From: Candidatus Thorarchaeota archaeon
Lineage (GTDB): Archaea; Asgardarchaeota; Thorarchaeia; Thorarchaeales; Thorarchaeaceae
Assembly: GCA_013388835.1 (NCBI GenBank)
Contig: JACAEL010000038.1
Location: forward strand, 171-64,170
DNA: 64,000 nt
Reading direction: 5' to 3'
Position numbers and translations under genes: made by a program. Position 1 is the stretch's first letter, and every line of letters begins with the position of its first letter. Under the pieces are notes generated by a model. It saw nothing but the letters and a program-made list of their open reading frames with translations. It was not told where the DNA came from and did no database searches. Below, piece after piece: positions 4,799-56,178 of this stretch.

Positions 4799-4993
4799 AT
4801 CTCAAGCGTATCAGAGCATATATACATTACTGTGTACACATTATTATCGCAGTATTACTGTGTACATGTAGAGGGGACGCAGTCGATTTCCCTTACGTGG
4901 CCCCAATTACCGATCACGGTTCTAGCCGGGCTTCAGAGCCAGTTAAAGCTAGCTACAATGAATGGTAATGACAGAGTGTCTGTCACACGACCG

Positions 4994-40908: not shown

Positions 40909-42114
40909 TTGACGCCAAAGGAGAAGTACGAGGTTGTGGTCGTTGGTGCTGGTCCTGCTGGGAGCACGGCGGCCAGGACTGTTGCAGAGCATGGTCATTC
41001 GGTCCTTCTTCTAGAGCGAAGACGAAGGATAGGCTGGCCTGTCCAGTGTGGCGAGCTTCTTCCGGCAAGGACCGAGATAGAGCGTCTGCTGCCGGAGTCC
41101 CCTCGCGCTTCTAGACTCTGTACACCCCCTGCTCACACGGTCACGAACAGGTGCAGACTCCTCCGTCTTGTCTCTCCGCTTGGTAGTATTGCCGAGTTCA
41201 GATTCCTCCACAGCGTACTTGACCGTTCTCTGTTCGACCAGTTCCTCGCAGACCGAGCCGTGGACGCAGGCGCTGAGCTGTGCCTTGAGACTGCCGCAGT
41301 CAACCGGTCTGCAGACAACCACATCGGCCTTCGTATACGAGGGCGGGAGAGTCTCGTGGTCAGTGGCCGAGTCGTCGTCGGAGCCGATGGACCAAAGTCC
41401 CTGATAGCAACCTCGATTCGAAGCGTGTATCCCAATGAGGACCGCGACATGTCGCTCTCGATGCAGTATGTGATGCGCGGTGTTGAGTGCGATGAGGACG
41501 TCACCGAGATGCACTTCGGTAGCAGTGTTGCTCCGGGAGGCTATGCATGGATCATACCGAAGGGTGACGAAGTGGCAAATGTGGGTCTCGGTCTGAGGAG
41601 AGCTTTCTCTCGTGAGGGTACGCTTCTGCGCGACTACCTGAACCGATTTGTGAAACGCAATCCCAATGTGTCGGGGATGCTGGCGCGTGCAAAGGTGGTG
41701 AGCAGGATAAGCGCCTACATCCCTGTGGGAGGACCGACCAAGAGAGTCCATGGGCCCGGTGTCGTACTGGCCGGTGATGCCGCCGGTCACGTGATGGCCT
41801 CGAACGGTGGAGGGATTCCCACAGCACTGGTCGCGGGCGAGCTCGCAGGCATGGCAGTCTCAAGTCACCTGAAGGGCGGAGCACCACTGTCATCGTATGA
41901 TGCTGCATGTAGGAAGGAGATGGGCGCCGTGCTGGAGGAGGCACTCAGAGTGCTGAGAGTCGCTGACAGGGTGATGCGCTCCGACACAGTCACAGACCAG
42001 TGCATGCGGCTGGCCGGGCCGCGGTTTCTTCAGCATCTGATCCGGTGCAGGCTTCCCCTGCCCGTCGCGCTCGCATCGAAGACACTGGTCCGGGCACTGG
42101 AGTGGACGGACTGA
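40909..42114 (+). CDS. Geranylgeranyl reductase family FAD-dependent oxidoreductase (archaeal lipid saturation)
   Basis: YEVVVVGAGPAGSTAAR FAD motif, CGE, and the length and architecture of the GGR/ChlP family. Confidence 0.75.
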   Translation: MTPKEKYEVVVVGAGPAGSTAARTVAEHGHSVLLLERRRRIGWPVQCGELLPARTEIERLLPESPRASRLCTPPAHTVTNRCRLLRLVSPLGSIAEFRFLHSVLDRSLFDQFLADRAVDAGAELCLETAAVNRSADNHIGLRIRGRESLVVSGRVVVGADGPKSLIATSIRSVYPNEDRDMSLSMQYVMRGVECDEDVTEMHFGSSVAPGGYAWIIPKGDEVANVGLGLRRAFSREGTLLRDYLNRFVKRNPNVSGMLARAKVVSRISAYIPVGGPTKRVHGPGVVLAGDAAGHVMASNGGGIPTALVAGELAGMAVSSHLKGGAPLSSYDAACRKEMGAVLEEALRVLRVADRVMRSDTVTDQCMRLAGPRFLQHLIRCRLPLPVALASKTLVRALEWTD

Positions 42115-42122
42115 GCCCATGA

Positions 42123-43070
42123 CTAGTAGAGGCGTTCCACCACGAAGTCAGCGAGTGCCAGCAGAGTGTCCTTTCTCGTCAGTTCCTCATCGCGCAGCTG
42201 CTGTCTTGCCTCTTCAGCGTAGTGCTTTGCCAGTCGCACGGTCTCCTCAACGGCTCGCGTCTCGTCAATCATCCTGAGCGCTGGTTCGATGTCCGACATA
42301 CTGAGCCCCCGGATTGCACGGGCTCGCACTTCGTCGGATGAGGACTCGAGGCCATATACAAGCGGATAGCTGATACGCCTGTGTCTGAGGTCTGAGAGTG
42401 CTGATGTGTCCGCATCGCGCTGAAGCGAACGGACGTCAAGTACATCATCCCGTAGTTGAAACGCTATGCCAATCATCTTGCCGAACTCCCCAAGGACCTC
42501 CACCTGTCTGTCAGTCCCGCCCCCGAGCAGGGCGCCCACTTGAGATATCCCCATCATGAAGGAGGCAGTCTTGCTTCTCACCACACTCATGTAATATGAG
42601 GTGGTCATGTGTCCAGGATTGGAGAGGTCGATGAGAAAGTCGGACGCTTCTCCCTCACACATCACAATCCCGCATTCGCTAAGCCTCTGAAGGACTTCTG
42701 GTACAGCTCTCTGCCCTATGATTCGCACGGCAAGGGCAATCAAGAGGTCTCCTGCAATGACTGCAATCTTGGTGCCGTACTTCAGGTGGGTAGACGTGAC
42801 ACCACGACGAACACTGTCATCATCGATGATGTCGTCGTGGATCAGACTGGCGGTCTGGATCAGTTCTGTCGCTGCTGCAAAGGGCAGTGCGTCTTCGGCG
42901 GTGCCTCCAACGCTTATGCACGCGAGGAGCATCAAGAGAGACCGGACTTTCTTTCCACTCGCCTTGAGCAGATGGTGTGCGGCCTCGTAGAGCACAGCTG
43001 GCTCTCTTCCGGTCCTAACTCCGAGCAGTCGCTCAATCTCCTCGTCGACCAGACTGAGCAGCTCTGTCAC
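42123..43070 (-). CDS. Polyprenyl synthetase (GGPP synthase-like trans-prenyltransferase)
   Basis: First DDxxD (LIHDDIIDDD) and second DDxxD (QLRDDVLD) aspartate-rich motifs. Confidence 0.85.
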   Translation of the reverse strand: MTELLSLVDEEIERLLGVRTGREPAVLYEAAHHLLKASGKKVRSLLMLLACISVGGTAEDALPFAAATELIQTASLIHDDIIDDDSVRRGVTSTHLKYGTKIAVIAGDLLIALAVRIIGQRAVPEVLQRLSECGIVMCEGEASDFLIDLSNPGHMTTSYYMSVVRSKTASFMMGISQVGALLGGGTDRQVEVLGEFGKMIGIAFQLRDDVLDVRSLQRDADTSALSDLRHRRISYPLVYGLESSSDEVRARAIRGLSMSDIEPALRMIDETRAVEETVRLAKHYAEEARQQLRDEELTRKDTLLALADFVVERLY

Positions 43071-43297
43071 ATCGCCGCGTTCAAGAAAACTGAGCGGAGA
43101 GGCGTCTGTCCTGATTCCATTCGGCTGTTCATTTCGAGCGTCGGCTATTTCACGACGGCCTCCGAATCCTTGTCTTCAAGAAGCATCGTTCTGCAACGGC
43201 CTCGGTTCTCCAAGACCAGCAAGAGGCGTTCTCACTGACGGTTCAGTACGGAATGCTTAAACGTTTCGCGTAGCTGCATCGGTAATACTCCTTTCAT

Positions 43298-44350
43298 GTG
43301 AGCCGATATCAGATGAGCCAAGAGCAGACTCCTCCTAGCAAGGCACGCATCTGGTTGAGAGAGATGCGACTTCCGTTTCTCACTGCGACGATAGTGCCAA
43401 TCGGATTTGGTACGGCAATGGCGTGGGCGGTCCATGGAGTCTTCATGCTCGACCTGTTTCTCCTGACGAACCTCGCAGGTGCCTGTCTTCACATCGGTGC
43501 CAACGTCGCCAACGACTACTTTGACCATGTGAATCGGACAGACGACATGAACGTTGACTTCGTACGTCCCTTTAGTGGCGGCGCTAGACTCATTCAGGAA
43601 GGACTGCTGAGACCCAAGGAGGTCCTTGCTGGTGCGCTCGTCATCCTTGCGTTCGGAGGTGTGATAGGCCTGTACCTCTTCACCGTGAGGGGCCTTGTCA
43701 TTCTCATCCTCGGTGGCATCGGTGCGTTCTCCGGCTTCTTCTACTCGGCTCCACCATTCAAGTTCCAAGCGCGAGGTATGGGAGAGCCCTTCATCGGTCT
43801 CAACTTCGGAGTCCTGATGGTATTCGGGGCATACTACGTGCAGGTGCCAGAGCTGTCTCTCGACCCACTGATTGCATCTCTCCCAATTGCCACGCTTGTG
43901 ACGGCCATCCTCTACATCAACCAGTTCCCTGACTCGCGAGCAGATGAGGCGGCAGGGAAGAGGACTCTTGTCGTGCGGCTCGGTCTCAGAGCATCGGCGA
44001 AGGGCTACCTCTTCCTAATGCTGTTCGAGTACGCCTCACTCATACTGGGCATCATCATGGGATTCGTTCACCCGTTTGCCCTGGCGGCCCTCGGGACCAT
44101 TCCACTCGCCGCAAAGGGAAGTGCGGTGGCACTCAGGGAGTATGAACATCCACTCGGGCTTATCCCCTCCTACGCCTCGACCATCATGAACCACCTTCTC
44201 ACCGGTGCCGCCATGGCGGGTGCATATGTTCTGGTCGGGCTCGGTCTGACATACGAGTTCGCTGTGGCTCTGGGCATCTGTGTCCTGGTGGTCTCCTGTG
44301 TCAATGCTCGGAAGATGAGGGCTCCGCCTGCTCCGCCGTCCTCTGTCTGA
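43298..44350 (+). CDS. UbiA-family aromatic/lipid prenyltransferase (MenA- or DGGGP-synthase-like)
   Basis: NDYFDHVNRTDD (NDxxDxxxD) and a second Asp-rich motif in a 9-TM protein. Confidence 0.8.
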   Translation: MSRYQMSQEQTPPSKARIWLREMRLPFLTATIVPIGFGTAMAWAVHGVFMLDLFLLTNLAGACLHIGANVANDYFDHVNRTDDMNVDFVRPFSGGARLIQEGLLRPKEVLAGALVILAFGGVIGLYLFTVRGLVILILGGIGAFSGFFYSAPPFKFQARGMGEPFIGLNFGVLMVFGAYYVQVPELSLDPLIASLPIATLVTAILYINQFPDSRADEAAGKRTLVVRLGLRASAKGYLFLMLFEYASLILGIIMGFVHPFALAALGTIPLAAKGSAVALREYEHPLGLIPSYASTIMNHLLTGAAMAGAYVLVGLGLTYEFAVALGICVLVVSCVNARKMRAPPAPPSSV

Positions 44351-45245
44351 TACCGCGCACAAGACACCTGAAGAAGGCTCGCAGGTCTCTTGGCCGGACA
44401 TGGAGGGCAGGCACGCTTCCCATGTAGTCAACATAGGACTGACCGAATCGTTCAATGAGCTCGGCCTCCTCACGTCTGATGTGAACTCGCACGAGCAGAC
44501 AGACTGCCAGAGCGATTATGAGGGAGTAGATTGAGAACCTCAACGCAATGACAGACAGAGCATAGAGGATGGCTGAGAAGTACGCGGGATGGCGCAACAG
44601 GGAGTATATCTCGTGGTTCTGGACCTCTGACTCCTCAGGGAAGTACAGGTAGAGCACGACCATGTAGTCAACCCCAAACGTGAAGAAGGCACTGAGTGTG
44701 GTGAGAAGACCGATGGCGAAGATAGTGGAGAAGCAGAGTACTCTCAGTATCACGTCTACCTCTGCCGGCACCCCGAGAATGGGCAGCAGTGACCGCGACC
44801 ACTGAATGGTGACGTAGTTCACCGGGCTACCGAGAGGAACGGATCGGATTGACGTCGCAGCATGAAGAAGCAGTGATGGAATCAGCGCGACGCCCGCAAG
44901 GCCATTTCGAACCACCTTCTGATATGCAAGTGGTCCGTACAGTGCCTTCATTGATGCTCGTCGGGTCCACATCCGGGCTATCAGTCTTAGAGAGATCACC
45001 GACATGGTCAGGCTTCCGATGATTGGCAGGTACGGCTCGACAGCAACAAGCACATCCACACCAGGGAAGAGCCGGGGAAGGACATCCACAGAGAGCAGAA
45101 GGAGGTATCCCATGCATGTGGTCAACAAGACGCCCAAGGGGAATAGCAGTATCCGTCTCCCCGGATAGTCGGGCAGCTTTTCTCGAAGCCGGTCAAGACC
45201 CTTGATGTGCATCACTATAGACCTCGTCGTGCAGACGAGAGGCAT
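44301..45245 (-). CDS. Membrane protein with C-terminal isoprenylcysteine carboxyl methyltransferase (ICMT)/phospholipid methyltransferase-like domain
   Basis: The C-terminus RHPAYFSAILYAL…RVHIRREEAELIERFGQSYVDYMGSVPALHVRP matches the ICMT-family signature (RHPxY…EE…FG..Y..Y); several N-terminal TM helices. Confidence 0.55.
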   Translation of the reverse strand: MPLVCTTRSIVMHIKGLDRLREKLPDYPGRRILLFPLGVLLTTCMGYLLLLSVDVLPRLFPGVDVLVAVEPYLPIIGSLTMSVISLRLIARMWTRRASMKALYGPLAYQKVVRNGLAGVALIPSLLLHAATSIRSVPLGSPVNYVTIQWSRSLLPILGVPAEVDVILRVLCFSTIFAIGLLTTLSAFFTFGVDYMVVLYLYFPEESEVQNHEIYSLLRHPAYFSAILYALSVIALRFSIYSLIIALAVCLLVRVHIRREEAELIERFGQSYVDYMGSVPALHVRPRDLRAFFRCLVRGIRQRTAEQAEPSSSEH

Positions 45246-45284: not shown

Positions 45285-46514
45285 TCAGTATATCTCATCC
45301 AGCCCGTCCCACTTCAGGCCGAGTGCCTGTGCAACCAGCACTGCGAGGTCCTTCACCTGCTTGCTACTGCCAGTCTGCGGCAGCTGTTCATGCATGAAGT
45401 CAACGCATGAGGGACAGGCGGTGGCCACGACCTGTGCGCTGGTGGCCTCGATATCCTCGACCTTCAGGCGGTTTATCTTGACAGAGAAGTCCGGGTCGAA
45501 CGCGCGGAGGACTCCACCACTTCCGCAACAGAAGCTCTTGTTCTTGGTGTGAGGCAGCTCCTCAAAGGTGACCCCAGGCAGGTTCTCGAGCACCTTGCGG
45601 GGTTCTTCATAGATGCCGCTGTTCCTTCCCGCATCGCACCCGTCATGGAATGTCACTGACACGTCCAGCGGACTGGTGAGGCCGCTGATTCTGCCGCGGT
45701 CGATGAGGTCAGCATAGTACTGAGCACCGTAGATGACCTCGAAGGGCACATCGATGTCCAGGAACTCGTGGTACTCTTCCTTCCACATCCTGTAGCAGCC
45801 AGGACAATTCGTGACCAGCCGCTCCACCCCGAGTTCCCTGTACTTGGCAATGTTGTGTTCGGCGAACAGTCTTGCGGTCTCGAAGTCGCCTGCCATTATC
45901 ATGGGGGCTCCGCAGCACCACTCCTGATCGCCCAGGACTGTGTAGTCTTCCTCCACCCGGTCCATTATGAGCGTCGTGGCGATGGTGGCCTGAATCGGCA
46001 CCGCCCTGTAAGAGGATGCGCAGCCGAAGAAGAACGCCGTCTTGGCTCTGCGACCCACACGCGACAGGAGGGCGTCCTCGTCGGGGTGCCAGTACGACCA
46101 GCCCTCCACCCGGTCCATCTGGCTCTGGCCTTGGACATTGTAAGACTTCAGAAGTGTCTCTCGGGCCGTCTTGAGCTGCTCGGGCCACATCCCCGCCTTG
46201 AAGAAGTCTGCTCGCATCGTCTGATACAGCTTCACGAAGGGGATGTTGACCTGACAGACCTCCTCACAGCCTCCACACAGTGTGCAGCCAAAGACCGCGT
46301 CCCTGAGACCGGTCAGTCCTTCAGACGGCTTGATTCTCTTCTGGAGAAGGGCTCGGGTCAGAAGCATCTTTCCCTTTCCTGAGTAACTGTCCACGCGCTT
46401 CACCTTGTATGTGGGGCAGGCACCATTGCCCACCTGGCAGAAGGAACACTGAGCACATCTGAATGCCATCTCCTGGAGACCATACTCTTGTAGTGTTGAG
46501 AATCGCATGGACAC
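45285..46514 (-). CDS. (Fe-S)-binding oxidoreductase with two 4Fe-4S motifs and two CCG domains (GlcF/GlpC/HdrD-like)
   Basis: CAQCSFCQVGNGACP and CTLCGGCEEVCQ ferredoxin motifs; CCG domains (CCGAPM…, CPGCY…, CCGSGG…). Confidence 0.8.
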   Translation of the reverse strand: MSMRFSTLQEYGLQEMAFRCAQCSFCQVGNGACPTYKVKRVDSYSGKGKMLLTRALLQKRIKPSEGLTGLRDAVFGCTLCGGCEEVCQVNIPFVKLYQTMRADFFKAGMWPEQLKTARETLLKSYNVQGQSQMDRVEGWSYWHPDEDALLSRVGRRAKTAFFFGCASSYRAVPIQATIATTLIMDRVEEDYTVLGDQEWCCGAPMIMAGDFETARLFAEHNIAKYRELGVERLVTNCPGCYRMWKEEYHEFLDIDVPFEVIYGAQYYADLIDRGRISGLTSPLDVSVTFHDGCDAGRNSGIYEEPRKVLENLPGVTFEELPHTKNKSFCCGSGGVLRAFDPDFSVKINRLKVEDIEATSAQVVATACPSCVDFMHEQLPQTGSSKQVKDLAVLVAQALGLKWDGLDEIY

Positions 46515-46778
46515 TCACCAAGCCGGGCGCATCAAGCCAGACAACAGGCGAGCTGTCGTAGTTGGACTAGAAATACCTTTTCACATGACCAGTCCCGTCC
46601 AGCCAGACCATCCGGACCCGAGGCTGACAGGCAAGTCTGATTGATTGCAGGACCAAGCACATCTCCCACGGCGGGTCGCTTGTGCAGGAGATGAAAAGGA
46701 CACCCACCTCGCCAGCTTTTTAAGTCGTGACGGCCCCTGCGTGAAACCGGACCCAGATCGAACAGGGAGCCGCCTCCA

Positions 46779-48719
46779 ATGACTTTGAAGAAACATCTCG
46801 TAGATGAACTCACGGAGGTATTTGGTGAGAGGGTCGTCACTGCCAAGCACGAGCTCATCATCCATGCCCAAGACGTTGGCGCTCTGCCCAAGCAGGTCGG
46901 CTGGCTGATGAACACGAATCCGGATGCCGTAGTACGACCCCAGAGCGTGGAGGAGGTCCGCGCGCTCTATGCGTTTGCCAACAAGCACCACATCCCGCTC
47001 ACACCCAGAGGTGCTGGCACTTCCGGTTATGGTGGTGCTATCCCGCGTAACGGCGGCGTGGTCGTAGACATGCGGCTCTTTGACAAGGTGCTGTCAGTGG
47101 ATTCGCAGGCTCTCACTGTCACTGTACAGCCGGGAATCTCTTGGGCGAACCTTCAGCATCACCTGAACCGAATGGGACTGGACTTGCGCTGCTACCCGTC
47201 ATCGGGCATCTCGGCTACTGTTGGCGGCTGGGTCGCCCAGGGCGGCGATGGTATTGGTTCCCTCAAGTACGGGAACATCAATCAGAATGTAGTTGAGGTC
47301 GAGGTTGTCCTGCCGAATGGTCAGGTGGTGACCAGCCGTGACACCGACCTGTTCTGTGACACTGAAGGTATTCTTGGGATTATCACAAGGGTGACGCTCA
47401 AGATTAAGCCGCTCACTCGCATAGTCCCCATTGTGGTCAGCTTTTCTGAGAACTACCTCATGACATTCGCAATCGAGAAGATACTTGAGAGAGCCCCGCT
47501 CCCAATGACGATGAAGTTCGAGGAGTCCAAGTACACGGACCTCAAGAAGCAGGCATGGGAAGGACACGGACCATTCCCGTTCCCGGTCGACCACTGCACC
47601 CTTCTGGTCGCATTTGATGGTCCAGACGAGGAGATTGAACGAGGTCTCGAAGTGGTCCGCGAGGTCACTACCGAGTACAAGGGCCGCGTCTATGACAGGC
47701 AGGTGTCGGAACATGAGTGGGCCGAGCGATACTACCCGATGAGAATCAAGAAGCTTGGCCCCACACTCGTGGTCGGTCAGGCCTTTGCACCCCTGGAGAG
47801 ACTCGAGGCCATCCTTGACGACTTCCAGTTCGAACAGGCCTCGGCAAGAGCTGGCATTGACGGATACGTGAACTCCAAGACCGGCGTCACAATGATGGGC
47901 TATTTCCTGGAGGACGAGCGAAGGACCTTTTTCATGCTCTCGTGGGTGCAGAGCTTTGTGATCTTCAAGATTGCACAGCGACACGGTGGTCATCCCCACT
48001 CCACAGGGATATGGCTCGCAAACTATGCGCCAGTCTACTTTGGAAGACGGAGGCTCGGGCGTATCAGAGCGGCGAAACTCAAGTATGACCCCAACGAGGT
48101 GTCCAACCCCGGGAAGGTGTTCGCATACTGGCTGCCGCTCATACTCCGTATTGGCAAGTACTTCATGTGGATTGCCTTTGACCTCTTCCGAAACGGGTTT
48201 GGCCGCATGGCCCCCATACTCTTGAAGTGGCTACAGAATCTGCCGCCACTCAAGTGGGTGTTGCGCTGGGGACGCGCGCACAGCCCGTGGCCTGTGCAAT
48301 ATGGACTGGGATGTTGCATGGCCGATGGAGCAGCGGCGGTGGCTTCGAGATGGGACCTTGAGAGGTTCGGCATGCTGCCGCTCTTCGGACCCAGGCAGTG
48401 TGATGTCCTGTGGATATCGGGGTCACTCACAAAGAAGATGGCCCCAAGGCTCAAGCGTATCTACGAACAGATGCCCGAACCCAAGTATGTCATCTGTTTT
48501 GGGCAGTGCGCTGCGAGTGGTGGCCTCTTCTGGGATGGATACTCGCTCGAAACAGACCCGGAGAAGATCGTGCCTGTCGATGTCTACTTGCCCGGTTGCC
48601 CACCGAAGCCGGAGGACTTTGTGAGGGCACACCTCATTCTGCAGAACAAGATACGGGCAGGCACCACTCACTGGCAGAGGCGATACGAGAATCAGGACGC
48701 AATGGGAGTCATTCAGTAG
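46779..48719 (+). CDS. In-frame fusion of FAD-linked oxidase (GlcD/D-lactate dehydrogenase type) and NADH-quinone oxidoreductase subunit B (NuoB, N2-cluster subunit)
   Basis: Residues 1-480 carry the FAD PCMH domain (PRGAGTSGYGGAIP…NPGKVF, the usual C-terminus of GlcD-family proteins). There is no stop. After a roughly 55-aa hydrophobic/amphipathic linker comes the NuoB core (WGRAHSPWPVQYGLGCCMAD…CFGQCAASGG…YLPGCPP with the four N2-ligating Cys). The ORF is continuous, 646 aa. Confidence 0.8.
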   Translation: MTLKKHLVDELTEVFGERVVTAKHELIIHAQDVGALPKQVGWLMNTNPDAVVRPQSVEEVRALYAFANKHHIPLTPRGAGTSGYGGAIPRNGGVVVDMRLFDKVLSVDSQALTVTVQPGISWANLQHHLNRMGLDLRCYPSSGISATVGGWVAQGGDGIGSLKYGNINQNVVEVEVVLPNGQVVTSRDTDLFCDTEGILGIITRVTLKIKPLTRIVPIVVSFSENYLMTFAIEKILERAPLPMTMKFEESKYTDLKKQAWEGHGPFPFPVDHCTLLVAFDGPDEEIERGLEVVREVTTEYKGRVYDRQVSEHEWAERYYPMRIKKLGPTLVVGQAFAPLERLEAILDDFQFEQASARAGIDGYVNSKTGVTMMGYFLEDERRTFFMLSWVQSFVIFKIAQRHGGHPHSTGIWLANYAPVYFGRRRLGRIRAAKLKYDPNEVSNPGKVFAYWLPLILRIGKYFMWIAFDLFRNGFGRMAPILLKWLQNLPPLKWVLRWGRAHSPWPVQYGLGCCMADGAAAVASRWDLERFGMLPLFGPRQCDVLWISGSLTKKMAPRLKRIYEQMPEPKYVICFGQCAASGGLFWDGYSLETDPEKIVPVDVYLPGCPPKPEDFVRAHLILQNKIRAGTTHWQRRYENQDAMGVIQ

Positions 48720-49178
48720 GTGAGGTCAATGTCGCTCAGAGAAGACACAGAGTTCTATTGCCTGCTCTGGCTTGGCATGGTCACACTGGGCTCGTACTAC
48801 TTCAACGTGTTCTATCTGTCAGCCACGAGCTCGACCTATCTCTCCGCCATCGGCTCATTGTTGCCCGTCCTGCTGGGGGCTCCCCTGATGCTTGTCTTTC
48901 TGTTCGTTGGTTATCTGAAGCCGGCAAGAGGCCGCATCAAGATGAACATGCTGGCCCTCGCGGTCATCGTCATGGTGTTCTACGCCATAATGATTGCAGG
49001 AGAGCCAACCGGCCAGGCTGGCGGCATGTACACCGCGTTCTGGGGCGCGGGAAGCTCACTGCTTGTCGCAGGTGCCCTTGCGATTCGGCCGTCACTGACC
49101 GAGAGCACCTCTCGTGGCATGCTTGACGTGTCAAAGCTGAAGTATCCGCCCGAGCCGCCAACCGACTCTGCAGAGTAG
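48720..49178 (+). CDS. Small integral membrane protein (4 TM)
   Basis: 152 aa hydrophobic ORF starting 1 bp after the fusion gene stop. Confidence 0.45.
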   Translation: MRSMSLREDTEFYCLLWLGMVTLGSYYFNVFYLSATSSTYLSAIGSLLPVLLGAPLMLVFLFVGYLKPARGRIKMNMLALAVIVMVFYAIMIAGEPTGQAGGMYTAFWGAGSSLLVAGALAIRPSLTESTSRGMLDVSKLKYPPEPPTDSAE

Positions 49179-49180
49179 AC

Positions 49181-49480
49181 TCACAGCTCCTTGAGCCACG
49201 CATAGGCGGAGAAACTCAGCAGCAGGCCAAATGCAATCCACGCGAAGAGGACTATACCCGGTCCCCAGTCGAACAGCGTCAGGTCCAAGTAGCCGTGCAC
49301 CCCTGTCACAGTCCCCGAGAACATCGTCATCAGTGTCCGGGAGGACCTAGTCTTCAAGTGAGCCAACAGAAAGGTCGACAGAAACAGGATGCCGCCCGTG
49401 CCAAAGAAAACCATGTGAAAGAATGTCAGTTCCACTGTTGATGCGAGCGCATACCAGAAATAGGAGCCCACGAATGCCAT
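49181..49480 (-). CDS. Small integral membrane protein (about 99 aa, 3 TM)
   Basis: Start taken at Met MAFVGSYFWY (49480). The longer ORF to 49687 reads through the direct repeats and is rejected. Confidence 0.45.
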   Translation of the reverse strand: MAFVGSYFWYALASTVELTFFHMVFFGTGGILFLSTFLLAHLKTRSSRTLMTMFSGTVTGVHGYLDLTLFDWGPGIVLFAWIAFGLLLSFSAYAWLKEL

Positions 49481-49496
49481 TCCACTGAGCAGAACG

Positions 49497-49606
49497 GTTT
49501 CAATCCCCGCGATATGGGATCTGTTTCTGCGACCAAGTATCTCTTGGCACGGGGCGTTCCTGTTTCCATGTTTCACTCCCCGCGATATGGGATCTGTTTC
49601 TGCGAC
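49497..49606. repeat. Two 37-bp direct repeats (gtttcaatccccgcgatatgggatctgtttctgcgac / gtttcactcc…, 1 mismatch) separated by a 36-bp unique spacer; minimal CRISPR-like array or regulatory direct repeat
   Basis: Read directly: repeat 1 at 49497-49533, spacer 49534-49569, repeat 2 at 49570-49606. Repeat length, spacer length and the GTTTCAAT 5' end are CRISPR-like. No cas genes are in the window. Confidence 0.5.
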
Positions 49607-50038
49607 ATGTCGGCCCCCGAACAGGCAATCTATGGTGTTGGAGTACGGATAGGCCTGCATTCTGGGGTGAGTTGTGTGCATCATCATTCTGCAAGGTCGC
49701 TTATAAACATCCCCACGCAGTATCGGTGGATGTCAAGTTGGGGGAAGGCCGAAGGGGTGAGGAAGGTCTACTGTCCCCTAGGAAAGGTTGTACAGACCGC
49801 GTCTTGTCAGCTGCTGCCGTCTCTCTCAATTGCTGACGGCTCGGGCAGGCTGTTCGAGAAGGCAGACAATGACCGTCCGGCACTCGCAGGACAGTCCGAA
49901 GCGTTTTTATGAAGCATGTCGGTAGCGGACGCCTAACGCCGGCATCCAAGGGACTCGACACAGCGCGGAGAGACATCGGGACAATGAATGTCTTGAGGGT
50001 CAGTCTGCTATTGCGTCGCCCAAGGAGAATCTGACGAC

Positions 50039-50521
50039 ATGAGCCTGACTGGTCTGCAGTGGAGTTCAACTGAAATGCGCCTGTTCATCGACTTCATCCC
50101 GGTCCTCCTGTGGGCCATATTCGCCATGGTACTCGTTGTCATAATGCTGTTGGCCTCTTGGGTGTTGCGCCCCCACGTCCTTCAGAACTCGGAGAAGACC
50201 TCGACCTACGAGTGTGGTGAGGAGCCTGTGGGCCCTGCGAGGATCTCGTATCCATACAACTACATGGTCTACACCGTGCTTTTTGTTGTGATCGACGTCC
50301 TCGGAGCCTTCCTCTACATCGTGGCGGCATCCACACTTCGTCTGTCAGTACCGGTGGTCTGGGAGGTGCTTCTGTTCGTAGTGCTGTTGGCCAGCGGTGT
50401 CGGCTACGCGATGAAGGTTCTGCCACATACGTCCACAGCCGGGAGTGAGACTCTGGCCCTGTATCGTGCGGCCAAGGCTGCATACATCGAGGGAGAACGC
50501 GAATCTGTGAGGTCAGACTGA
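50039..50521 (+). CDS. nuoA: NADH-quinone oxidoreductase subunit A (NuoA/Nqo7)
   Basis: 3-TM protein with YECGEEP motif. Confidence 0.85.
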   Translation: MSLTGLQWSSTEMRLFIDFIPVLLWAIFAMVLVVIMLLASWVLRPHVLQNSEKTSTYECGEEPVGPARISYPYNYMVYTVLFVVIDVLGAFLYIVAASTLRLSVPVVWEVLLFVVLLASGVGYAMKVLPHTSTAGSETLALYRAAKAAYIEGERESVRSD

Positions 50522-51123
50522 TGCAAGAGATTGAAGTGTTACTCGAACAGGTAGAGTTCGTGGCCATCGCCGTTGCGGTGATAGTCTTGGCGCTCCTTGC
50601 TCTTGAACACAAGGAGATTGTCTATGCGGCCTTCTTCTTCGGAATCATGGCCTCGGTGGTCGCGGGCGTCTTCCTCTTGCTCGAGGCCCCTTTCATCGCC
50701 GGTATGCAGATTGCCGTATACACGGGCGGAATCAGTGCGCTCATCATCTTTGCTGTACTGCTCTTGCCCAGGGCGCAGGACTCCTCGCTAGAGGTCTTCG
50801 AGTCTCCCAGAAGGAGGCGACTGGGGCTGGCCACTGCTGCGGGAGTCATGACGCTCTCCGGAGCGCTGGCACTTCTCTTCCCATGGTACGAGGCGTTTCC
50901 AGCTGGCCAACCTGACCTGGCCCAGAGCCTGCAGGAGCTTGCCGTCTGGATGTGGGGCACGCACGGTGTCATTGTTCAGATGGTTGCCCTGACGATGCTG
51001 ACTTCCATTGTTGGGACCATGACACTGCTGAGGATGGAGAAGACCGAACATCTCCAAGAGATTGCCACGTACACCAAGTCGGCTGAAGCCACCGACACGA
51101 GAGAGGAGGCTGAGAGACAGTGA
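50521..51123 (+). CDS. nuoJ: NADH-quinone oxidoreductase subunit J (NuoJ/ND6-like)
   Basis: 5-TM about 200 aa with the NuoJ-like VYTGGISALIIFAVLLL segment; position before nuoK. Confidence 0.7.
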   Translation: MQEIEVLLEQVEFVAIAVAVIVLALLALEHKEIVYAAFFFGIMASVVAGVFLLLEAPFIAGMQIAVYTGGISALIIFAVLLLPRAQDSSLEVFESPRRRRLGLATAAGVMTLSGALALLFPWYEAFPAGQPDLAQSLQELAVWMWGTHGVIVQMVALTMLTSIVGTMTLLRMEKTEHLQEIATYTKSAEATDTREEAERQ

Positions 51124-51431
51124 TCCCCCTGTCGTGGTATCTCATTCTGGCTTTCATTCTCATTGGTCTCGGGGCATACGGTATGGTTGTCAAGAGGAAT
51201 CTGATTCGTATTCTCATAGGCTCTGAGATCATGGCCAACGGTGTCAACATCGCGTTTGTTGCGACCTCGCTGTACTACCCGGTCTTCAACATCACTGGCC
51301 AGGCACTCATCGTCCTTGTGATATCCATCTCGGCGGCTCACACTGCGCTTGCGATGGTGTTGATGCTTCTCTACTACAGGCGATACAAGACTGTGGACCT
51401 TGGTCGTCGTCAGGTTGTGGAGGTGCGGTGA
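51120..51431 (+). CDS. nuoK: NADH-quinone oxidoreductase subunit K (NuoK/ND4L)
   Basis: 103 aa, 3 TM, LIGLGAYGMVVKRNLIRILIGSEIMANGVNIAFV. Confidence 0.85.
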   Translation: MIPLSWYLILAFILIGLGAYGMVVKRNLIRILIGSEIMANGVNIAFVATSLYYPVFNITGQALIVLVISISAAHTALAMVLMLLYYRRYKTVDLGRRQVVEVR

Positions 51432-51935
51432 TTGACGGAGAGTCCCTCAGCTCTGGCCTTTGCTCGAAGTGTCACGAACCGGTATCCGGACGTGCAGGCA
51501 GATGTGATTGACGAACACAATGTCAAGCTGAGCACACCCCCCGAAAGGATTCGTGATGTCGTTTCGCTCATCGACTCAGGCCTTTCAGACGCGTTCCCAG
51601 AGTCGGTCTTCGGTGTCGATCTGACCGGAGACCAGTACGAGCTGATATACTACTTCTGGTCCCACAACGCGCGACTCCTCTGCCAAGTGCGAGTGAGACT
51701 GACAGGACCCACCCCCTCCGTGCACTCCGTGGCCGACATGTTTCCGGGACTGGAGTGGCACGAGCGGGAGACCCATGAGATGTTCGGGATCCAGTTCGTG
51801 GGGCATCCGGACCTGAGGCCCCTCTTGCTTCCGGAGGAACTTAGAGGCAAGTACCCTCTCCGGAAGAGCTTCCAGACCGATAGGAGTCGTCTTGAGGAGT
51901 CGGGGCTTCCGTTGCGAGGAGGTGCGAGCGAGTGA
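51432..51935 (+). CDS. nuoC: NADH-quinone oxidoreductase subunit C (30 kDa)
   Basis: FPGLEWHERETHEMFGIQFVGHPDLRPLLLPEE signature. Confidence 0.85.
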   Translation: MTESPSALAFARSVTNRYPDVQADVIDEHNVKLSTPPERIRDVVSLIDSGLSDAFPESVFGVDLTGDQYELIYYFWSHNARLLCQVRVRLTGPTPSVHSVADMFPGLEWHERETHEMFGIQFVGHPDLRPLLLPEELRGKYPLRKSFQTDRSRLEESGLPLRGGASE

Positions 51936-53080
51936 CAACGAGACAGAAGCCGGACATACTCGAAGAGGCCTCTGAGATATGGTTTGGTCCTCAGCATGTC
52001 TCCGCTCACGGCTGGGCCACAAAGCTCACCATCGTTGGTGACTACGTGGTCGAGTGTGACCCGCACGCGGGCTACTTCCACAGGTCTGCGGAGAAGGTGC
52101 TGGAGTATCGTAACTTCAACCAAGGACCTCTGGTCATGGAGCGACTCTGCATGCTAGAGGCGTTTCTCGCAGAGTATCCCTACGTGAGTGCAGTGGAGAA
52201 GATAGCCGGTCTCGAAGTGCCAGAGAGGGCCAGAGTCCTGAGGACCATCATGATGGAGGCCAGTCGGATCCACAGCCTTCAGTTCTGGTGGGGGCAGTTC
52301 TCAGCCGAGCTCGGGCTGTTCGCAATGTTGCTCTGGCCGTGGATTGACAGAGAGTACTTCCTCGACACGTTCGAGGAGCTTACCGGGTCCAGACACACGG
52401 TGTCATTCAGCACTCCCGGCGGAGTGAGGTATGACATGACAGAGAAGGTCGCTCAGAAGCTGGACCGGGCGCTCACACGCCTGGAAGAGAGGATGCCCAA
52501 GTTTCGTGACATGCTCATGGGAAGCCCGACCTTTCGGCTTCGAACCCGAGGCGTGGGGCTACTGAGCGGCAGAGAGGCAATCAGGCTTGGACTGAGCGGC
52601 CCAAATGTGAAGGCATGCGGAATCCCGATGGACCTGCGCAAGGACATGCCTGACCCGAACCTGGCCTACGACCTCGTGGACTTCGAGGTGCCGACGGTGG
52701 AGAGCAAGGAACACCCGGGGATGAGTGACGCATACGACAGGATGGTGCAGCGATTCCACGAGGTCGAGACCTCAGTGAGCATAATCAGACAGCTCCTGCC
52801 TCATCTCAAGCCGGGCCCTGTCATCGACCCGAAGGCACGAGCGAAGACCAACCGACTTCCTGAGGGGGAGGCGTACGGAAGGGTCGAGGGCACACGAGGC
52901 ATCACAACAGTCTGGCTGAAGACCACCGACAAGGCACAGACACCCTATCGGGCGAAGGTGCGAGGACCGTGTTTCAACTCATACTACTCGCTAAAGCACC
53001 TCGTACCCGGACACAGATTTGCGGACTTCATAGTGGTGTTTGGTAGCCTTGACCCGTATCCGGGTTGGTGGGACAGGTGA
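51932..53080 (+). CDS. nuoD: NADH-quinone oxidoreductase subunit D (49 kDa)
   Basis: 382 aa, conserved NuoD regions (…HRSAEK…, C-terminal RGPCFNSYYSL…GSLDPYPGWWDR). Confidence 0.9.
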   Translation: MTTRQKPDILEEASEIWFGPQHVSAHGWATKLTIVGDYVVECDPHAGYFHRSAEKVLEYRNFNQGPLVMERLCMLEAFLAEYPYVSAVEKIAGLEVPERARVLRTIMMEASRIHSLQFWWGQFSAELGLFAMLLWPWIDREYFLDTFEELTGSRHTVSFSTPGGVRYDMTEKVAQKLDRALTRLEERMPKFRDMLMGSPTFRLRTRGVGLLSGREAIRLGLSGPNVKACGIPMDLRKDMPDPNLAYDLVDFEVPTVESKEHPGMSDAYDRMVQRFHEVETSVSIIRQLLPHLKPGPVIDPKARAKTNRLPEGEAYGRVEGTRGITTVWLKTTDKAQTPYRAKVRGPCFNSYYSLKHLVPGHRFADFIVVFGSLDPYPGWWDR

Positions 53081-53094
53081 GGAGGTGACATAGA

Positions 53095-54222
53095 GTGCAG
53101 TTCGACTTCTTCGAATGGCTTTCCGGGATACCGTCATGGCTCTGGGGCATACTCAGCTGGCTCTGGGGTGTCGTGCAGTGGTGGTTCTTCTGGGTCTGGG
53201 GACTCTTCGAATGGGTCTGGGGACTCGTTGTTGTCAACTTCTGGTTCCTGTTCAAAGCGGTCGTGTTTCCCGGTCTGATATTCATAGTCCTCGCAATCAT
53301 CTACTCCGTGTGGTTCTCAAGAAAACTGTGGGGTCGCATACAGGGCCGACGTGGTCCCTTCCACATCGGGAAGTATGGGGGTCTGCAGCTGTTCGCGGAT
53401 GCGATAAAGCTGGTCTCAAAGGAGACAATCATTCCAGACGGCGCCAAGAGGTGGATGTACCGGCTGCTTCCCAGTCTGCTTCTTGTGATTGTGATATTGC
53501 CGTTCGCCTTCGTACCCTGGGACGAATGGTGGTACATCTCAGACCTGTCTGTCAGCCTGGTCCTCATGTTCGCATTCGTGACCGCGGTCCCAGTGATTGC
53601 ACTCCTCGCAGGGTGGATCAGCGGGTCGAAGTACTCTCTGATAGGCGGCTTCAGAGCAGCGAACAACCAGTTTGCGGCGGAGATACCTCTCCTCATATCG
53701 TCAGTGGGCCCGGCGCTTCTTGCAGGCTCGCTCAGTATCATGACGATATCTCAGTCCCAGACAGCCATCTGGTACGTCTTTCTGCTTCCGGTGAGCTGCG
53801 CCACTTTCATCGTGAGTGCCGCTGCCACTACTGGCCTGGTGCCTTTCGATGCACCGATTGCAGACTCTGAGATCATATTCGGATGGAGAACGGAGTTCAG
53901 TGGCATCTACTTCACCATGACCTACTTTGCTGAGTTCGCAAAGCAGTTCCTCTACAGTGCAATGACGGTGGCGTTGTTTCTCGGGGGCTCTTACGGTCTG
54001 CCATTCCTGCCGGGGGTTGTCAACTTTCTCATCAAGACGCTGATAGTCATGTTCTTCTTTGTGGTCGTGACGAGTTCCTTCTTCCGTATTCGTCAGGATG
54101 AGATAGTCTACCACTCGTGGCGATACCTGCTGCCGCTGTCACTCCTGAATCTCGTCGTGGCCATGCTTGTCCTTGCCTATTTCCCACCGCTGGCCAGCGC
54201 GCTGCAGGGCATAGGAGGTTGA
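53095..54222 (+). CDS. nuoH: NADH-quinone oxidoreductase subunit H (ND1) with unusual Trp-rich N-terminal extension
   Basis: 8-TM NuoH core (GRIQGRRGPFHIGKYGGLQLFADAIKL, …FVPWD…) preceded by about 50 aa WLWGILSWLWGVVQWWFFWVWGLFEWVWGL. Confidence 0.85.
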   Translation: MQFDFFEWLSGIPSWLWGILSWLWGVVQWWFFWVWGLFEWVWGLVVVNFWFLFKAVVFPGLIFIVLAIIYSVWFSRKLWGRIQGRRGPFHIGKYGGLQLFADAIKLVSKETIIPDGAKRWMYRLLPSLLLVIVILPFAFVPWDEWWYISDLSVSLVLMFAFVTAVPVIALLAGWISGSKYSLIGGFRAANNQFAAEIPLLISSVGPALLAGSLSIMTISQSQTAIWYVFLLPVSCATFIVSAAATTGLVPFDAPIADSEIIFGWRTEFSGIYFTMTYFAEFAKQFLYSAMTVALFLGGSYGLPFLPGVVNFLIKTLIVMFFFVVVTSSFFRIRQDEIVYHSWRYLLPLSLLNLVVAMLVLAYFPPLASALQGIGG

Positions 54223-54226
54223 GACA

Positions 54227-54658
54227 ATGAGATTCTTCGCAGTCTTGGGTGACATATTCAGAGTCCTCAGACACATATTCAGACAGATCTTCGAGCGACC
54301 AATCACAGAGCTGTATCCCTACGAGGACCGCTACTATCCAGAGCGTACAAGGGGACGTCACATCCATGTCAGAGAGAACTGCACGGCCTGTGGACAGTGT
54401 GTCAGGGCCTGCCCGAACGTTGCGATTCGGATTGACAAGGCCGATAGGAAGTTCGAGAAGGACGCGGCACTCTACTTCGACTACACCAGATGCATCTTCT
54501 GTGGGCTATGCGTCCAGGCATGCAGGTTCAACGCGCTGTTTCACACTCCTGTGACGGACCTCTCTGAGGGAGACCGGGAGAGTCTGACATATGGTCCTGA
54601 GAGGATGTCCACTCTTGACAGAGAGCCTCTGAAGTGGCGTGGAAGGAGGTTCAGGTAG
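54227..54658 (+). CDS. nuoI: NADH-quinone oxidoreductase subunit I (2x[4Fe-4S], TYKY)
   Basis: CTACGQCVRACP and CIFCGLCVQACRFNAL ferredoxin motifs. Confidence 0.85.
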   Translation: MRFFAVLGDIFRVLRHIFRQIFERPITELYPYEDRYYPERTRGRHIHVRENCTACGQCVRACPNVAIRIDKADRKFEKDAALYFDYTRCIFCGLCVQACRFNALFHTPVTDLSEGDRESLTYGPERMSTLDREPLKWRGRRFR

Positions 54659-56178
54659 TGCAGACTCTCGAACTGCCGCTCATGGCCTCGTCGCTGGTTG
54701 TCCTCTTCATTGGAGGGCTCATCATCTACCTGCTCAGGGGTAAACTACAGGGGTCGGCTGGCAAGGTTGCAGTCGGCTTCTCATCGCTGTCAGTCGCGCT
54801 CATGATACCACCTTTCTACAGAGTGCTCGTGGAGAGAGGCACGGCATACGAGGGCTTCAGGTGGTCTGCAGTGCTTGGTGAGTTCGGCCTCAACCTCGAC
54901 CAGATAGCCTTCCCCATCACGTTCGCCATTGTAGTGCTCGGTTTCTTCTCAGTGTTGTACGCAGTGGGATACACTGAGCATACTGAGAACAGACCGACCT
55001 TCTTCGCCAATCAGCTGTTCTTTCTGATGGGCATGCAATGGGTCACTCTTGCAACCAACATCCTGGAGTTCTTCATCGCGTGGGAGCTCATGCTGGTTCC
55101 CAGCTACTTCCTCATTCTCTTCTGGGGACTGCCTGAGACCAGACAGCGAACAGCCATGAAGTTCTGGCTGTACACACAGAGCGGCGCAGTCACCATATTC
55201 ATCGGTCTGGCGCTGCTATACTATGTTTCGGGAGCGAGCAGTTTCGATATCGCAGTCATTCAGGCGGCGTATCCGCTCTTCGCTGGTCAGTCCCAACTCC
55301 TCAAGTTGATCTTCGTCCTGTTGGCGGCGGGTTTCCTTGTGAAGATGGCCGTCGTTCCGCTTCACTGGTGGTTGCCGCCCGTGCATGCTGAGGCCCCCAC
55401 ACCAATCTCAGTACTCCTCTCCGGCGCCATGATCGAGACAGGCGCATATGCGCTGGTCAGATTCGGGACGATAACTATGCCGGGGACGGCAAGGGAACTG
55501 TCATTTGTAGTCGCCGCGGTTGGCGTGGTCACCATGTTCTATGGTGGGTTCATGGCACTCGCACAGAAGGACATCAAGCGCCTCCTCGCATACTCGTCGG
55601 TCTCACAGATGGGCTACGTCCTGTTCGCTCTTGGCACCTTCTCATCCTTTGGTATGGCCGGAGGACTCTTCCATCTCATCAACCACGCATTCTCCAAGGG
55701 CCTGCTCTTCATGACCGCGGGCGCCGTGATACACCAGACACATCTACGCGACATTGATCTCATGGGTGGTCTCCACAACAAGATGCCAGTGACCGCCTTC
55801 GCTGCAGCGATAGGCGCAATGAGTATTGCCGGGAGTCCTCCGCTCTCCGGCTTTGCGAGCGAGTGGATGATGTTCCTCGGCGGCTTTCAGGCTGCGCTCA
55901 TCACGGACACCGGGGTCGGGTCAGTGCCATTTCTGGCCATCACGATACTGGCGCTCTCAAGCACGATTCTGAGTGCAGGCTATATGCTTCGCTTCCTCTG
56001 GAAGGTATTCCTGGGTCCACATCCTGAGACACTGGAAGATGTGAGAGAGGGTCCGAGGTCGATGACTGTCCCGATGATTGCCCTGTCCGTCCTCATTGTG
56101 CTGCTCGGAATACTACCCGGCCTAGTCCTCGACGTCATAACGGCGGGGACGAACGGCATTCCAAACATACTACCCTGA
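54634..56178 (+). CDS. Extra complex-I antiporter-like subunit (NuoN/NuoM-type, Mrp-antiporter fold), fourth such subunit in the operon
   Basis: 14-TM protein with the conserved PLHWWLPPVHAEAPTPISVLLSGAMIETGAYALVRF segment. The start may be the GTG/ATG just after the nuoI stop (54658 or 54682). Confidence 0.75.
   Translation: MAWKEVQVVQTLELPLMASSLVVLFIGGLIIYLLRGKLQGSAGKVAVGFSSLSVALMIPPFYRVLVERGTAYEGFRWSAVLGEFGLNLDQIAFPITFAIVVLGFFSVLYAVGYTEHTENRPTFFANQLFFLMGMQWVTLATNILEFFIAWELMLVPSYFLILFWGLPETRQRTAMKFWLYTQSGAVTIFIGLALLYYVSGASSFDIAVIQAAYPLFAGQSQLLKLIFVLLAAGFLVKMAVVPLHWWLPPVHAEAPTPISVLLSGAMIETGAYALVRFGTITMPGTARELSFVVAAVGVVTMFYGGFMALAQKDIKRLLAYSSVSQMGYVLFALGTFSSFGMAGGLFHLINHAFSKGLLFMTAGAVIHQTHLRDIDLMGGLHNKMPVTAFAAAIGAMSIAGSPPLSGFASEWMMFLGGFQAALITDTGVGSVPFLAITILALSSTILSAGYMLRFLWKVFLGPHPETLEDVREGPRSMTVPMIALSVLIVLLGILPGLVLDVITAGTNGIPNILP

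Follow-up and report, generated by a model that had tools for sequence, protein, structure and literature searches.

Thorarchaeota Carry a Flavoprotein Domain and the NuoB Subunit of a Complex-I-like Enzyme on One Polypeptide

In Thorarchaeota, NuoB of a complex-I-like enzyme and an N-terminal flavoprotein domain of the VAO/PCMH type form a single polypeptide. The protein was analyzed in a 64,000-nucleotide stretch of contig JACAEL010000038.1 from Candidatus Thorarchaeota archaeon, referred to here as the window, together with its gene neighborhood and its homologs in other genomes. The covalent joining of a flavoprotein to NuoB, which is conserved, constitutes an apparently undescribed redox module on an enzyme of the complex I family. 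What serves as electron source or sink for archaeal complex I homologs that lack NuoEFG ("headless" complexes) is a long-standing question, and their partners have usually been guessed from gene neighborhood. Here the partner is written into the polypeptide itself: a flavoprotein is joined to the subunit that carries cluster N2, at what we take to be the quinone end rather than the usual input end of the complex. The fusion is thus a concrete and testable system in which to ask about the partner of a headless complex I.

Results

The Fusion Protein Comprises a Complete FAD Domain, a Conserved Linker, and a Complete NuoB

The open reading frame (ORF) is uninterrupted and falls into three segments:

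46779..48719, + strand: fusion protein, 646 aa, with the following segments
46779-48122, + strand: FAD domain, residues 1-448
48123-48263, + strand: amphipathic linker, residues 449-495
48264-48719, + strand: NuoB domain, residues 496-646, with the N2 ligands C512, C513, C577, and C607

The original prediction, an earlier reading of the window, held that a single ORF runs through from a FAD domain into a complete NuoB, and profile searches with Pfam and NCBIfam bear this out. FAD_binding_4 matches residues 48-185 (E 1e-43) and FAD-oxidase_C residues 231-447; the latter match reaches the last position of the profile, which coincides with the motif NPGKVF, so that the FAD domain ends where it had been proposed to end. 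Oxidored_q6/NuoB (PF01058) follows at residues 512-617 (E 3e-24), and the NuoB part exceeds the curated NCBIfam cut-offs (NF005012, 174.7 versus 116; TIGR01957, 168.2 versus 142.7). Its closest solved structures are cyanobacterial NdhK, Nqo6 of Thermus thermophilus, and mitochondrial PSST, with E values of ~1e-43; NdhK is the best match among sequences in the PDB (E 1.8e-43), and MbsJ (4.5e-31) and MbhJ (8.5e-27) are weaker. C512, C513, C577, and C607, which include the tandem CC, align with the N2 ligand motifs of NdhK and Nqo6 and are invariant in 42 fusion sequences and 31 free NuoB sequences, in agreement with the earlier statement that all N2 ligands are present.

The junction was examined with respect to the point at which NuoB begins and the topology of the linker. 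From about residue 488-493 (PLKWVLRW) onward the protein is homologous to free NuoB, with this point aligned to residue 30 of NdhK and residue 24 of Nqo6. The earlier assignment of a NuoB domain in the C-terminal part therefore stands, with its start shifted slightly upstream of the proposed WGRAHS. The flavoprotein domain and the linker stand in for the first ~25 residues of NuoB and run into the first NuoB helix. In an AlphaFold2 model of the fusion (mean predicted local distance difference test score 84.6), helices in the linker region span residues 451-472, 480-486, and 489-500. A maximum Kyte-Doolittle 19-residue mean of 1.3 and a hydrophobic moment of up to 0.6 rule out a linker helix that crosses the membrane and would leave the FAD domain extracellular. 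Since the linker is amphipathic rather than membrane spanning, both domains stay on the cytoplasmic side.

The Fusion Is Conserved and Confined to One Asgard Lineage

Full-length fusions were recovered in ~45 clusters (90% identity) that are 70-83% identical to the window protein. They were drawn from NCBI, JGI, ENA, and Logan assemblies, all come from metagenome-assembled genomes of Asgard archaea, almost all with a Thorarchaeota label, and one originates from a complete 3.16-Mb genome (a 3,157,342-bp contig). An architecture of 644-667 aa with a conserved junction is found in every cluster and all four data sources. Purifying selection acts alike on the FAD domain, the linker, and NuoB, with nonsynonymous diversity (pN) of 0.09-0.19 against synonymous diversity (pS) of ~0.8, and among the fusions the mean identity of the linker (80%) is higher than that of the FAD domain (74%).

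The chance that a missed stop codon, a frameshift, or a mis-assembly joined two separate genes is negligible. A sequencing error would have to recur in ~45 independent clusters of the same architecture, one of them from a complete genome, and to mimic purifying selection across the junction, with a linker pN far below pS. These observations exclude it.

A search of databases for the domain fusion and its phyletic distribution had likewise been proposed. When 1.84 billion cluster representatives were scanned exhaustively with HMMER, one representative (of a 50%-identity cluster) had both domains and no FAD-NuoB fusion appeared in further lineages; the other matches carried the FAD domain only, FAD with iron-sulfur (FeS) and CCG domains, or NuoB only. 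A 533-aa protein with two matching stretches (P0193) was rejected as a fusion, as it consists of repetitive, chloroplast-NdhK-like junk sequence. Among the best 120 NuoB-domain matches, no free NuoB carried a Thorarchaeota label or came from the 3.16-Mb contig. The NuoB motif YEQMPEPK was ubiquitous in a contig scan, with two Thorarchaeota loci among the matches listed. Annotation pipelines and databases call the fusion proteins simply "NuoB," a label that hides the additional FAD domain and poses an annotation problem.

No description of a flavoprotein-NuoB fusion was found in the openly searchable full-text literature, and within that scope the earlier impression that the architecture is not a described one holds. 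A catalog of archaeal gene fusions lists NuoBC(D) fusions only, and its supplements contain no NuoB or PF01058 entry (PMC11237513). The literature on Asgard metabolism describes Nuo complexes without NuoEFG, as well as a hydrogenase-like complex I in Heimdallarchaeia.

The FAD Domain Resembles D-Lactate Dehydrogenase but Lacks Its Metal Site

The FAD domain has the FAD_binding_4 plus FAD-oxidase_C fold of dehydrogenases of the LDHD/D2HGDH type, is modeled with high confidence, and retains conserved FAD-binding motifs. Its top sequence and fold matches are LctD and mouse D-lactate dehydrogenase (mLDHD), followed by alkyl-dihydroxyacetone phosphate synthase (AGPS); in a Foldseek search with the modeled domain, mLDHD ranked best (TM 0.85, E 8e-33) and AGPS second. 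The assignment to a GlcD/D-lactate-dehydrogenase type thus holds for the fold and fails for the family and the active site. Scores against GlcD models are far below their cut-offs (TIGR00387, 140.7 versus 567.9; NF008408, 109.1 versus 897), and no GlcE-like second FAD_binding_4 gene adjoins the fusion, so a true GlcDEF glycolate oxidase was rejected. In a MAFFT alignment with mLDHD, the domain has G-Y-V-N-S-K-T-G-V at the position of GHVGDGNF(H) and P-H-S-T at that of GEHG. With these metal and catalytic motifs replaced, a metal-dependent D-lactate dehydrogenase active site was rejected as well.

Loss of the His/His/Glu metal site extends throughout the subfamily, in the Thorarchaeota proteins and their close relatives, including bacterial FAD-FeS-CCG proteins of 900-1030 aa. 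The subfamily is marked by the signatures EWxERFYPMRxKxLGPS and GGxxYSxGxW (relatives P0052-P0126). It comprises free forms from Asgard archaea, whose C-terminal tails are amphipathic or transmembrane, and the bacterial fusions, which are the closest non-archaeal relatives of the domain and carry FAD, FeS, and CCG parts covalently. Its function appears to be uncharacterized. The arginine aligned with the "WAAR" motif of mLDHD is retained, and a carboxylic acid is a possible substrate judging from the residues conserved. A substrate of the lactate/glycolate type, as originally proposed, finds little in its favor given the GlcD scores, the missing GlcE, and the subfamily-wide replacement of the metal site; the term is a guess at the level of the family only.

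A CCG Iron-Sulfur Protein Is Encoded Divergently at Every Fusion Locus

Upstream of the fusion lie a gene on the opposite strand and a shared intergenic region:

45285..46514, - strand: HdrD/GlpC/GlcF-like CCG protein, 409 aa, likely start ATG at 46508
46515..46778: divergent intergenic region, with a TATA-like TTTTTAAG at 46716-46723, ~55 nt upstream of the fusion ATG

Pfam matches to the translation comprise a 2x[4Fe-4S] ferredoxin motif (Fer4_8) and two complete CX..CCG..CXXC domains, which confirms the divergent GlcF-like protein with two ferredoxin motifs and two CCG domains that had been noted from the sequence. Seven fusion loci were compared, the window and six further ones, and the CCG gene occupies the opposite strand in 7/7, with 65-75% identity and a divergence that tracks that of the fusion. 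Its NCBIfam relatives are TfrB, LdhH, GlpC, TmcB, HmcF, GlcF, DsrK, and HdrB; none of the equivalog cut-offs is reached, with TfrB scoring best (154 versus 385) and GlcF at 63.6 versus 333. In the PDB it matches HdrB and 9ojn, a 1042-aa "iron-sulfur-binding reductase." The intergenic region may serve as a promoter, as its TATA-like element suggests.

In the complete genome CP070761.1 (L002, 1-9808), two and probably three additional FAD_binding_4 plus CCG pairs lie directly upstream of the fusion's CCG gene, the third only partly on the locus, and PNPOx-like genes are also found there. The extra pairs indicate a large paralogous family of flavoprotein/CCG dehydrogenases.

The nuo Cluster Encodes a Headless Complex with Four Antiporter-like Subunits

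Downstream of the fusion, Pfam and NCBIfam profile searches identify the following genes, all on the + strand:

50039-50521, + strand: nuoA
50521-51123, + strand: nuoJ
51120-51431, + strand: nuoK
51432-51935, + strand: nuoC
51932-53080, + strand: nuoD
53095-54222, + strand: nuoH
54227-54658, + strand: nuoI
54634-56178, + strand: extra NuoM-like, antiporter-like subunit
56190-58454, + strand: NuoL, 754 aa, antiporter-like subunit
58455-59993, + strand: NuoM, antiporter-like subunit
59983-61488, + strand: NuoN, antiporter-like subunit

The same searches found no separate nuoB and no nuoE, nuoF, or nuoG in the cluster, as had been observed before, and no NuoEFG-type family among the other large ORFs of the window. 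The enzyme comprises the 11 core subunits and a fourth antiporter-like subunit, lacks NuoEFG, and retains a NuoI with two 4Fe-4S motifs. Two separate NuoM-type genes score 311 and 406 bits against TIGR01972, NuoN is the top match for the fourth gene, and NuoL measures 729-754 aa across Thorarchaeota loci, ~140 aa above the usual length. Two NuoM-type genes, NuoN, and an elongated NuoL make up the "2M" pattern, here in an archaeon.

The quinone site of NuoD is altered. His38 (GPQHVSAHG; Thermus thermophilus Nqo4 numbering) is kept. Within an ungapped 37-residue stretch, however, Tyr87 is replaced by Met or Leu (Met in the window) and Asp86 by an invariant Cys in all Thorarchaeota sequences, giving the motif ER[LIM]C[ML][LV]EAF where canonical homologs have R-x-D-Y. 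The replacement of Tyr87 speaks against the notion that N2 hands electrons to quinone in the canonical manner. NuoD scores about equally against Nqo4 and MbsL (204 and 199 bits), and both of its NiFe CxxC motifs are gone: the N-terminal one is reduced to a single Cys (ERLCMLE), and the C-terminal one (DPYPGWWDR) has none. With the ligand cysteines missing, a NiFe hydrogenase was rejected.

NuoH also departs from its Escherichia coli counterpart at several acidic positions within conserved motifs, with "PFDAPIADSE" in place of "PFDQPEAEQE" and "SRK" in place of "ERR." These changes hint at an altered quinone chamber or E-channel entrance. The composition and entrance of the quinone chamber of complex I have been described (PMC4331043).

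Two Small Membrane Proteins and a Prenyl Cluster Flank the Fusion

The remaining genes of the locus lie between the fusion and nuoA and beyond the CCG gene:

48720..49178, + strand: ORF-X, 152 aa, four hydrophobic helices and an acidic PEPEP tail
49181..49687, - strand: ORF-Y, small membrane protein with the motif SGxxxGVHGYLD, between ORF-X and nuoA
40909-42114, + strand: geranylgeranyl-reductase (GG-reductase) family gene
42123-43070, - strand: polyprenyl synthase
43298-44350, + strand: MenA-like UbiA prenyltransferase
44301-45245, - strand: PEMT/ICMT-like methyltransferase

In the six further loci the gene order is (MutS) GG-reductase, polyprenyl synthase, (MenA-like UbiA), CCG, fusion, ORF-X, ORF-Y, nuoAJKCDHI-M-L-M-N, with the CCG gene and ORF-Y on the opposite strand. 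The start of ORF-X abuts or overlaps the stop codon of the fusion. ORF-X is conserved in an alignment over five loci (40-45% identity by tblastn) and has no Pfam or NCBIfam match. The conserved portion of ORF-Y is its C-terminal ~110 aa (49181 to ~49520), and searches of profile libraries gave no family match. Both may encode extra subunits or assembly factors. Because two small membrane-protein genes, ORF-X on the + strand and ORF-Y on the - strand, intervene, the fusion and nuoA-N are probably carried on separate transcripts.

The prenyl-quinone-type cluster spans 40909..45245, adjoins the CCG gene, and is kept beside the CCG and FAD genes in Thorarchaeota loci. The UbiA protein of the window matches MenA models only, with a TIGR00751 score of 100.4 against a cut-off of 102.15. 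Adjoining the cluster at 38123-40717 (-) is a full-length MutS of the bacterial type (domains I-V), conserved in 5/5 Thorarchaeota loci that reach far enough upstream (window, L001, L085, L086, and L087).

Unfused Relatives Occur in Thorarchaeota and in a Sister Lineage

A locus of another Thorarchaeota lineage (L001, 8665-11497) holds an unfused orthologous pair at the same MutS/GG-reductase/polyprenyl synthase/UbiA position. Its CCG protein is 62% identical and encoded co-directionally with the FAD protein, which has 498 aa and 56% identity and ends in the tail "...PPLKWIRNDM," stopping exactly where the NuoB of the fusion begins. No nuo genes were found within 10 kb of the pair. The pair represents either the state before fusion or a truncation.

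The free NuoB sequences nearest to the fusion, 68% and 64% identical, belong to a sister lineage. One of its contigs (L003) encodes nuoA-nuoB as a separate pair (4951-5942), away from other nuo genes, with a GG-reductase/polyprenyl-synthase/MenA-like cluster ~7-10 kb from it. A second contig (L088, 1-14140), from the same JGI sample, carries an HdrE/NarI-like membrane-protein gene and a gene for a CCG protein of 483 aa, which immediately precede nuoJKCDHI and four antiporter-like genes. NuoD of this sister complex I clade is 51% identical to that of the window and has "ERLSMLE" at the altered motif. Its CCG protein was rejected as an ortholog of the fusion's partner, as 24% identity marks it as a paralog. 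With a CCG gene ahead of the nuo genes in the sister clade as well, a CCG module beside this type of complex recurs, and CCG modules and MenA-type prenyl clusters are recurrent companions of this complex I clade.

Discussion

Where the Module Attaches and What It May Exchange

Two arguments bear on how the flavoprotein could work with the pump. The first is geometric. The first helix of NuoB presumably lies at the interface with NuoH and NuoA, beside N2 and the quinone chamber, judging from published complex I structures. The N-terminus of NuoB would then mark the membrane or quinone end of the Fe-S chain, which we take to be opposite the end where NuoEFG or FpoF docks. The original prediction had the module "in place of the NADH module"; attachment at the NuoB N-terminus, presumably the quinone end, speaks against this, and NuoI is kept as a possible entry site for ferredoxin.

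The second argument is energetic. From textbook potentials, electron transfer from lactate to menaquinone yields ~22 kJ per 2 e-, and moving 4-5 H+ with four antiporter-like subunits takes 50-70 kJ or more; a forward proton pump driven by hydroxyacid oxidation, as first proposed, is therefore energetically implausible. Transfer from ferredoxin to menaquinone yields ~73 kJ, matching five H+ at ~150 mV, and the step from hydroxyacid to ferredoxin costs ~+50 kJ, payable by proton influx. Taken together, these values favor a reversible ferredoxin:organic-substrate oxidoreductase.

Based on these data, we favor, at a rough probability of 45%, a model in which a flavo-Fe-S module is connected, at the quinone end, to a reversible pump that is linked to ferredoxin, with substrate, wiring, and direction being inferred. 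The FAD domain and the co-located HdrD/GlpC-like CCG protein would together form one flavo-Fe-S dehydrogenase, a view supported by bacteria that encode the same pair as single proteins of 900-1030 aa. Electrons would pass reversibly between substrate, FAD, the 2x[4Fe-4S] motif, and the CCG clusters. The fusion would keep the module at the membrane surface, where the peripheral arm has its foot, by N2 and the mouth of the quinone chamber. There it could trade electrons with the pump at the quinone end; the carrier could be a prenylquinone that the neighboring MenA-like cluster produces, or the exchange with N2 could be direct. The ferredoxin site would be NuoI, at the opposite end of the Fe-S chain. 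The whole would act as a reversible, proton-coupled oxidoreductase between ferredoxin and an organic, probably carboxylic-acid, substrate. In the direction ranked first, oxidation of the substrate to quinol would be followed by reverse electron flow to ferredoxin, driven by the proton motive force, which would give an acetogenic or fermentative cell a source of low-potential electrons; electron transfer from ferredoxin to an oxidized substrate, with pumping, is ranked lower.

Several observations weigh against this model. The location assumed for the NuoB N-terminus is carried over from published structures of other complex I enzymes. In L001 the FAD and CCG proteins are unfused and without nuo genes within 10 kb, which suggests that the pair can work without being fused. 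The sister-clade CCG protein, at only 24% identity, is a paralog of the fusion's partner; the CCG gene and nuoA-N lie in transcription units separate from the fusion; the loss of the canonical quinone ligand Tyr87 from NuoD makes a canonical quinone site doubtful; and the FAD domain has neither a score near the GlcD cut-off nor the His/His/Glu metal site.

A bolder version would make the locus an unrecognized energy-converting machine, in which the NuoB-fused VAO-type flavoenzyme, the HdrD-like CCG protein, and a captive prenylquinone or N2 contact connect ferredoxin with an organic acid in an internal circuit. We hold this version tentatively and with clearly less confidence than the model above, and just as tentatively its corollary that the assembly is one proton-coupled ferredoxin:organic-substrate oxidoreductase that either pumps protons or is driven by the proton motive force. 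If true, it would explain a working headless archaeal complex I homolog in an Asgard archaeon without a conventional respiratory chain. More generally, the fusion would represent a conserved way of attaching an enzyme for an organic substrate to a proton-pumping respiratory complex.

Alternative Explanations

The favored model has to be weighed against readings in which the fusion is an anchor, a conventional input module, or a structural device. The enzyme could be an ordinary ferredoxin:quinone oxidoreductase, with the FAD/CCG pair an independent quinone-reducing dehydrogenase merely anchored through NuoB, a reading that is possible though it falls well behind the favored one; the same modest likelihood attaches to its extension, that both feed one free quinone pool re-oxidized by another enzyme. 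The unfused orthologous pair fits such tethering, as it has the same amphipathic tail and no adjacent nuo genes, and many relatives of the FAD domain carry C-terminal membrane anchors or tails; the CCG family, moreover, is typical of quinone-linked enzymes (GlpC, DsrK, and HmcF). The strong conservation of the linker and the exact replacement of NuoB's own N-terminal segment point to a fixed geometry and away from a loose tether, and no terminal quinol oxidase or reductase is seen within the window.

Considerably less probable is the mechanism of the original prediction, in which the FAD/CCG module replaces the NADH module and passes electrons from lactate or glycolate via N2 to quinone with forward pumping, analogous to FpoF/FqoF. 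The cluster lacks nuoEFG and a separate nuoB, a flavoprotein and an Fe-S partner are at hand, and D-lactate dehydrogenase is the best fold match of the FAD domain, all of which agree with it. The attachment, however, is at the NuoB N-terminus, presumably the quinone end, and not at the distal NuoI/NuoG end; the ~22 kJ per 2 e- available from lactate to menaquinone falls short of what pumping with four antiporter-like subunits requires; the FAD domain does not qualify as GlcD and has no LDHD metal site; and NuoD has no Tyr87. Least probable among the functional alternatives, and unlikely in our view, is a noncatalytic FAD domain that serves assembly, regulation, or structure, much as L-galactonolactone dehydrogenase is found on assembly intermediates of plant complex I, or one that serves prenyl-lipid or quinone biosynthesis. 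The absence of the catalytic metal triad of the LDHD family, the second-best fold match to the lipid enzyme AGPS, and the adjoining prenyl cluster with its MenA and GG-reductase genes would be consistent with such a role, but FAD-binding motifs conserved under purifying selection, a dedicated Fe-S/CCG electron-transfer partner that co-evolves with the FAD domain, and membership in the same subfamily as covalent FAD-FeS-CCG redox proteins of bacteria all speak against it.

Comparison with Known Systems

The combination of a FAD_binding_4/FAD-oxidase_C flavoprotein with a ferredoxin-CCG protein is shared with GlcDEF, with fused enzymes of the Dld-II/YdiJ type, and with Dld+HdrD gene pairs, the last of which have been described in Sif- and Jordarchaeia (PMC9723677). 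The window proteins differ from GlcDEF and YdiJ-type enzymes in scoring far below the GlcD, GlcF, and YdiJ cut-offs, in having no GlcE, and in having no LDHD metal site, and, in contrast to the window protein, none of these enzymes is fused to a complex I subunit.

Among complexes without NuoEFG, the cyanobacterial and photosynthetic NDH-1 is related through NdhK, the best NuoB match, and presumably also receives electrons from ferredoxin via its NuoI homolog; it has a canonical plastoquinone site, Ndh accessory subunits, and no flavoprotein on NdhK. MBS and MBH are brought to mind by the near-equal MbsL and Nqo4 scores of NuoD and by "R-x-C-x-x-E" in place of the Asp-Tyr quinone motif. The membrane arm of the window complex, however, is complex-I-like (NuoA/J/K and a NuoL with a long C-terminal part), its NuoB is nearer to NdhK and Nqo6 than to MbsJ and MbhJ, and NiFe ligands are missing. 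The second NuoM-like gene ahead of a long NuoL (754 aa) and the four antiporter-like subunits resemble the "2M" complex I, reportedly characterized by an extra NuoM and an elongated NuoL, features that have been argued to raise the H+/e- ratio and to favor reverse operation. Described 2M complexes are bacterial, linked to NADH or quinone, and have a normal NuoB and NuoD, whereas the window complex is archaeal and combines the absence of NuoEFG with a fused NuoB and a NuoD without Tyr87.

The Fpo/Fqo complexes are likewise archaeal pumps of the complex I type that lack NuoEFG and use a flavin- and Fe-S-containing protein as a substitute redox module. Membership in this group was rejected on profile scores (FpoD, 250 versus 600; FpoH, 213 versus 475; FpoL, 305 versus 1050; FpoC, FpoI, and FpoK also fall below their cut-offs), and the window ORFs that were scanned included no FpoF-like gene. 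FpoF forms a subunit of its own, has another fold and F420H2 as its specific substrate, and presumably acts at the distal end of the Fe-S chain; the VAO-type flavoprotein of the window, by contrast, is covalently attached to the N-terminus of NuoB, presumably at the quinone end. A further parallel is the headless Fpo-like complex of Methanomassiliicoccales, for which an association with HdrD has reportedly been proposed. It too is an 11-subunit complex without an input module; ferredoxin is its presumed partner, and electron exchange with an HdrD-like protein of the CCG type has been proposed. In that system the substrate reduced by HdrD is the CoM-S-S-CoB heterodisulfide and the complex has no fused flavoprotein, whereas the CCG protein of the window pairs with a FAD domain that resides within the NuoB polypeptide. 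The association in Methanomassiliicoccales is a hypothesis; at the Thorarchaeota locus, the gene itself specifies part of the physical connection.

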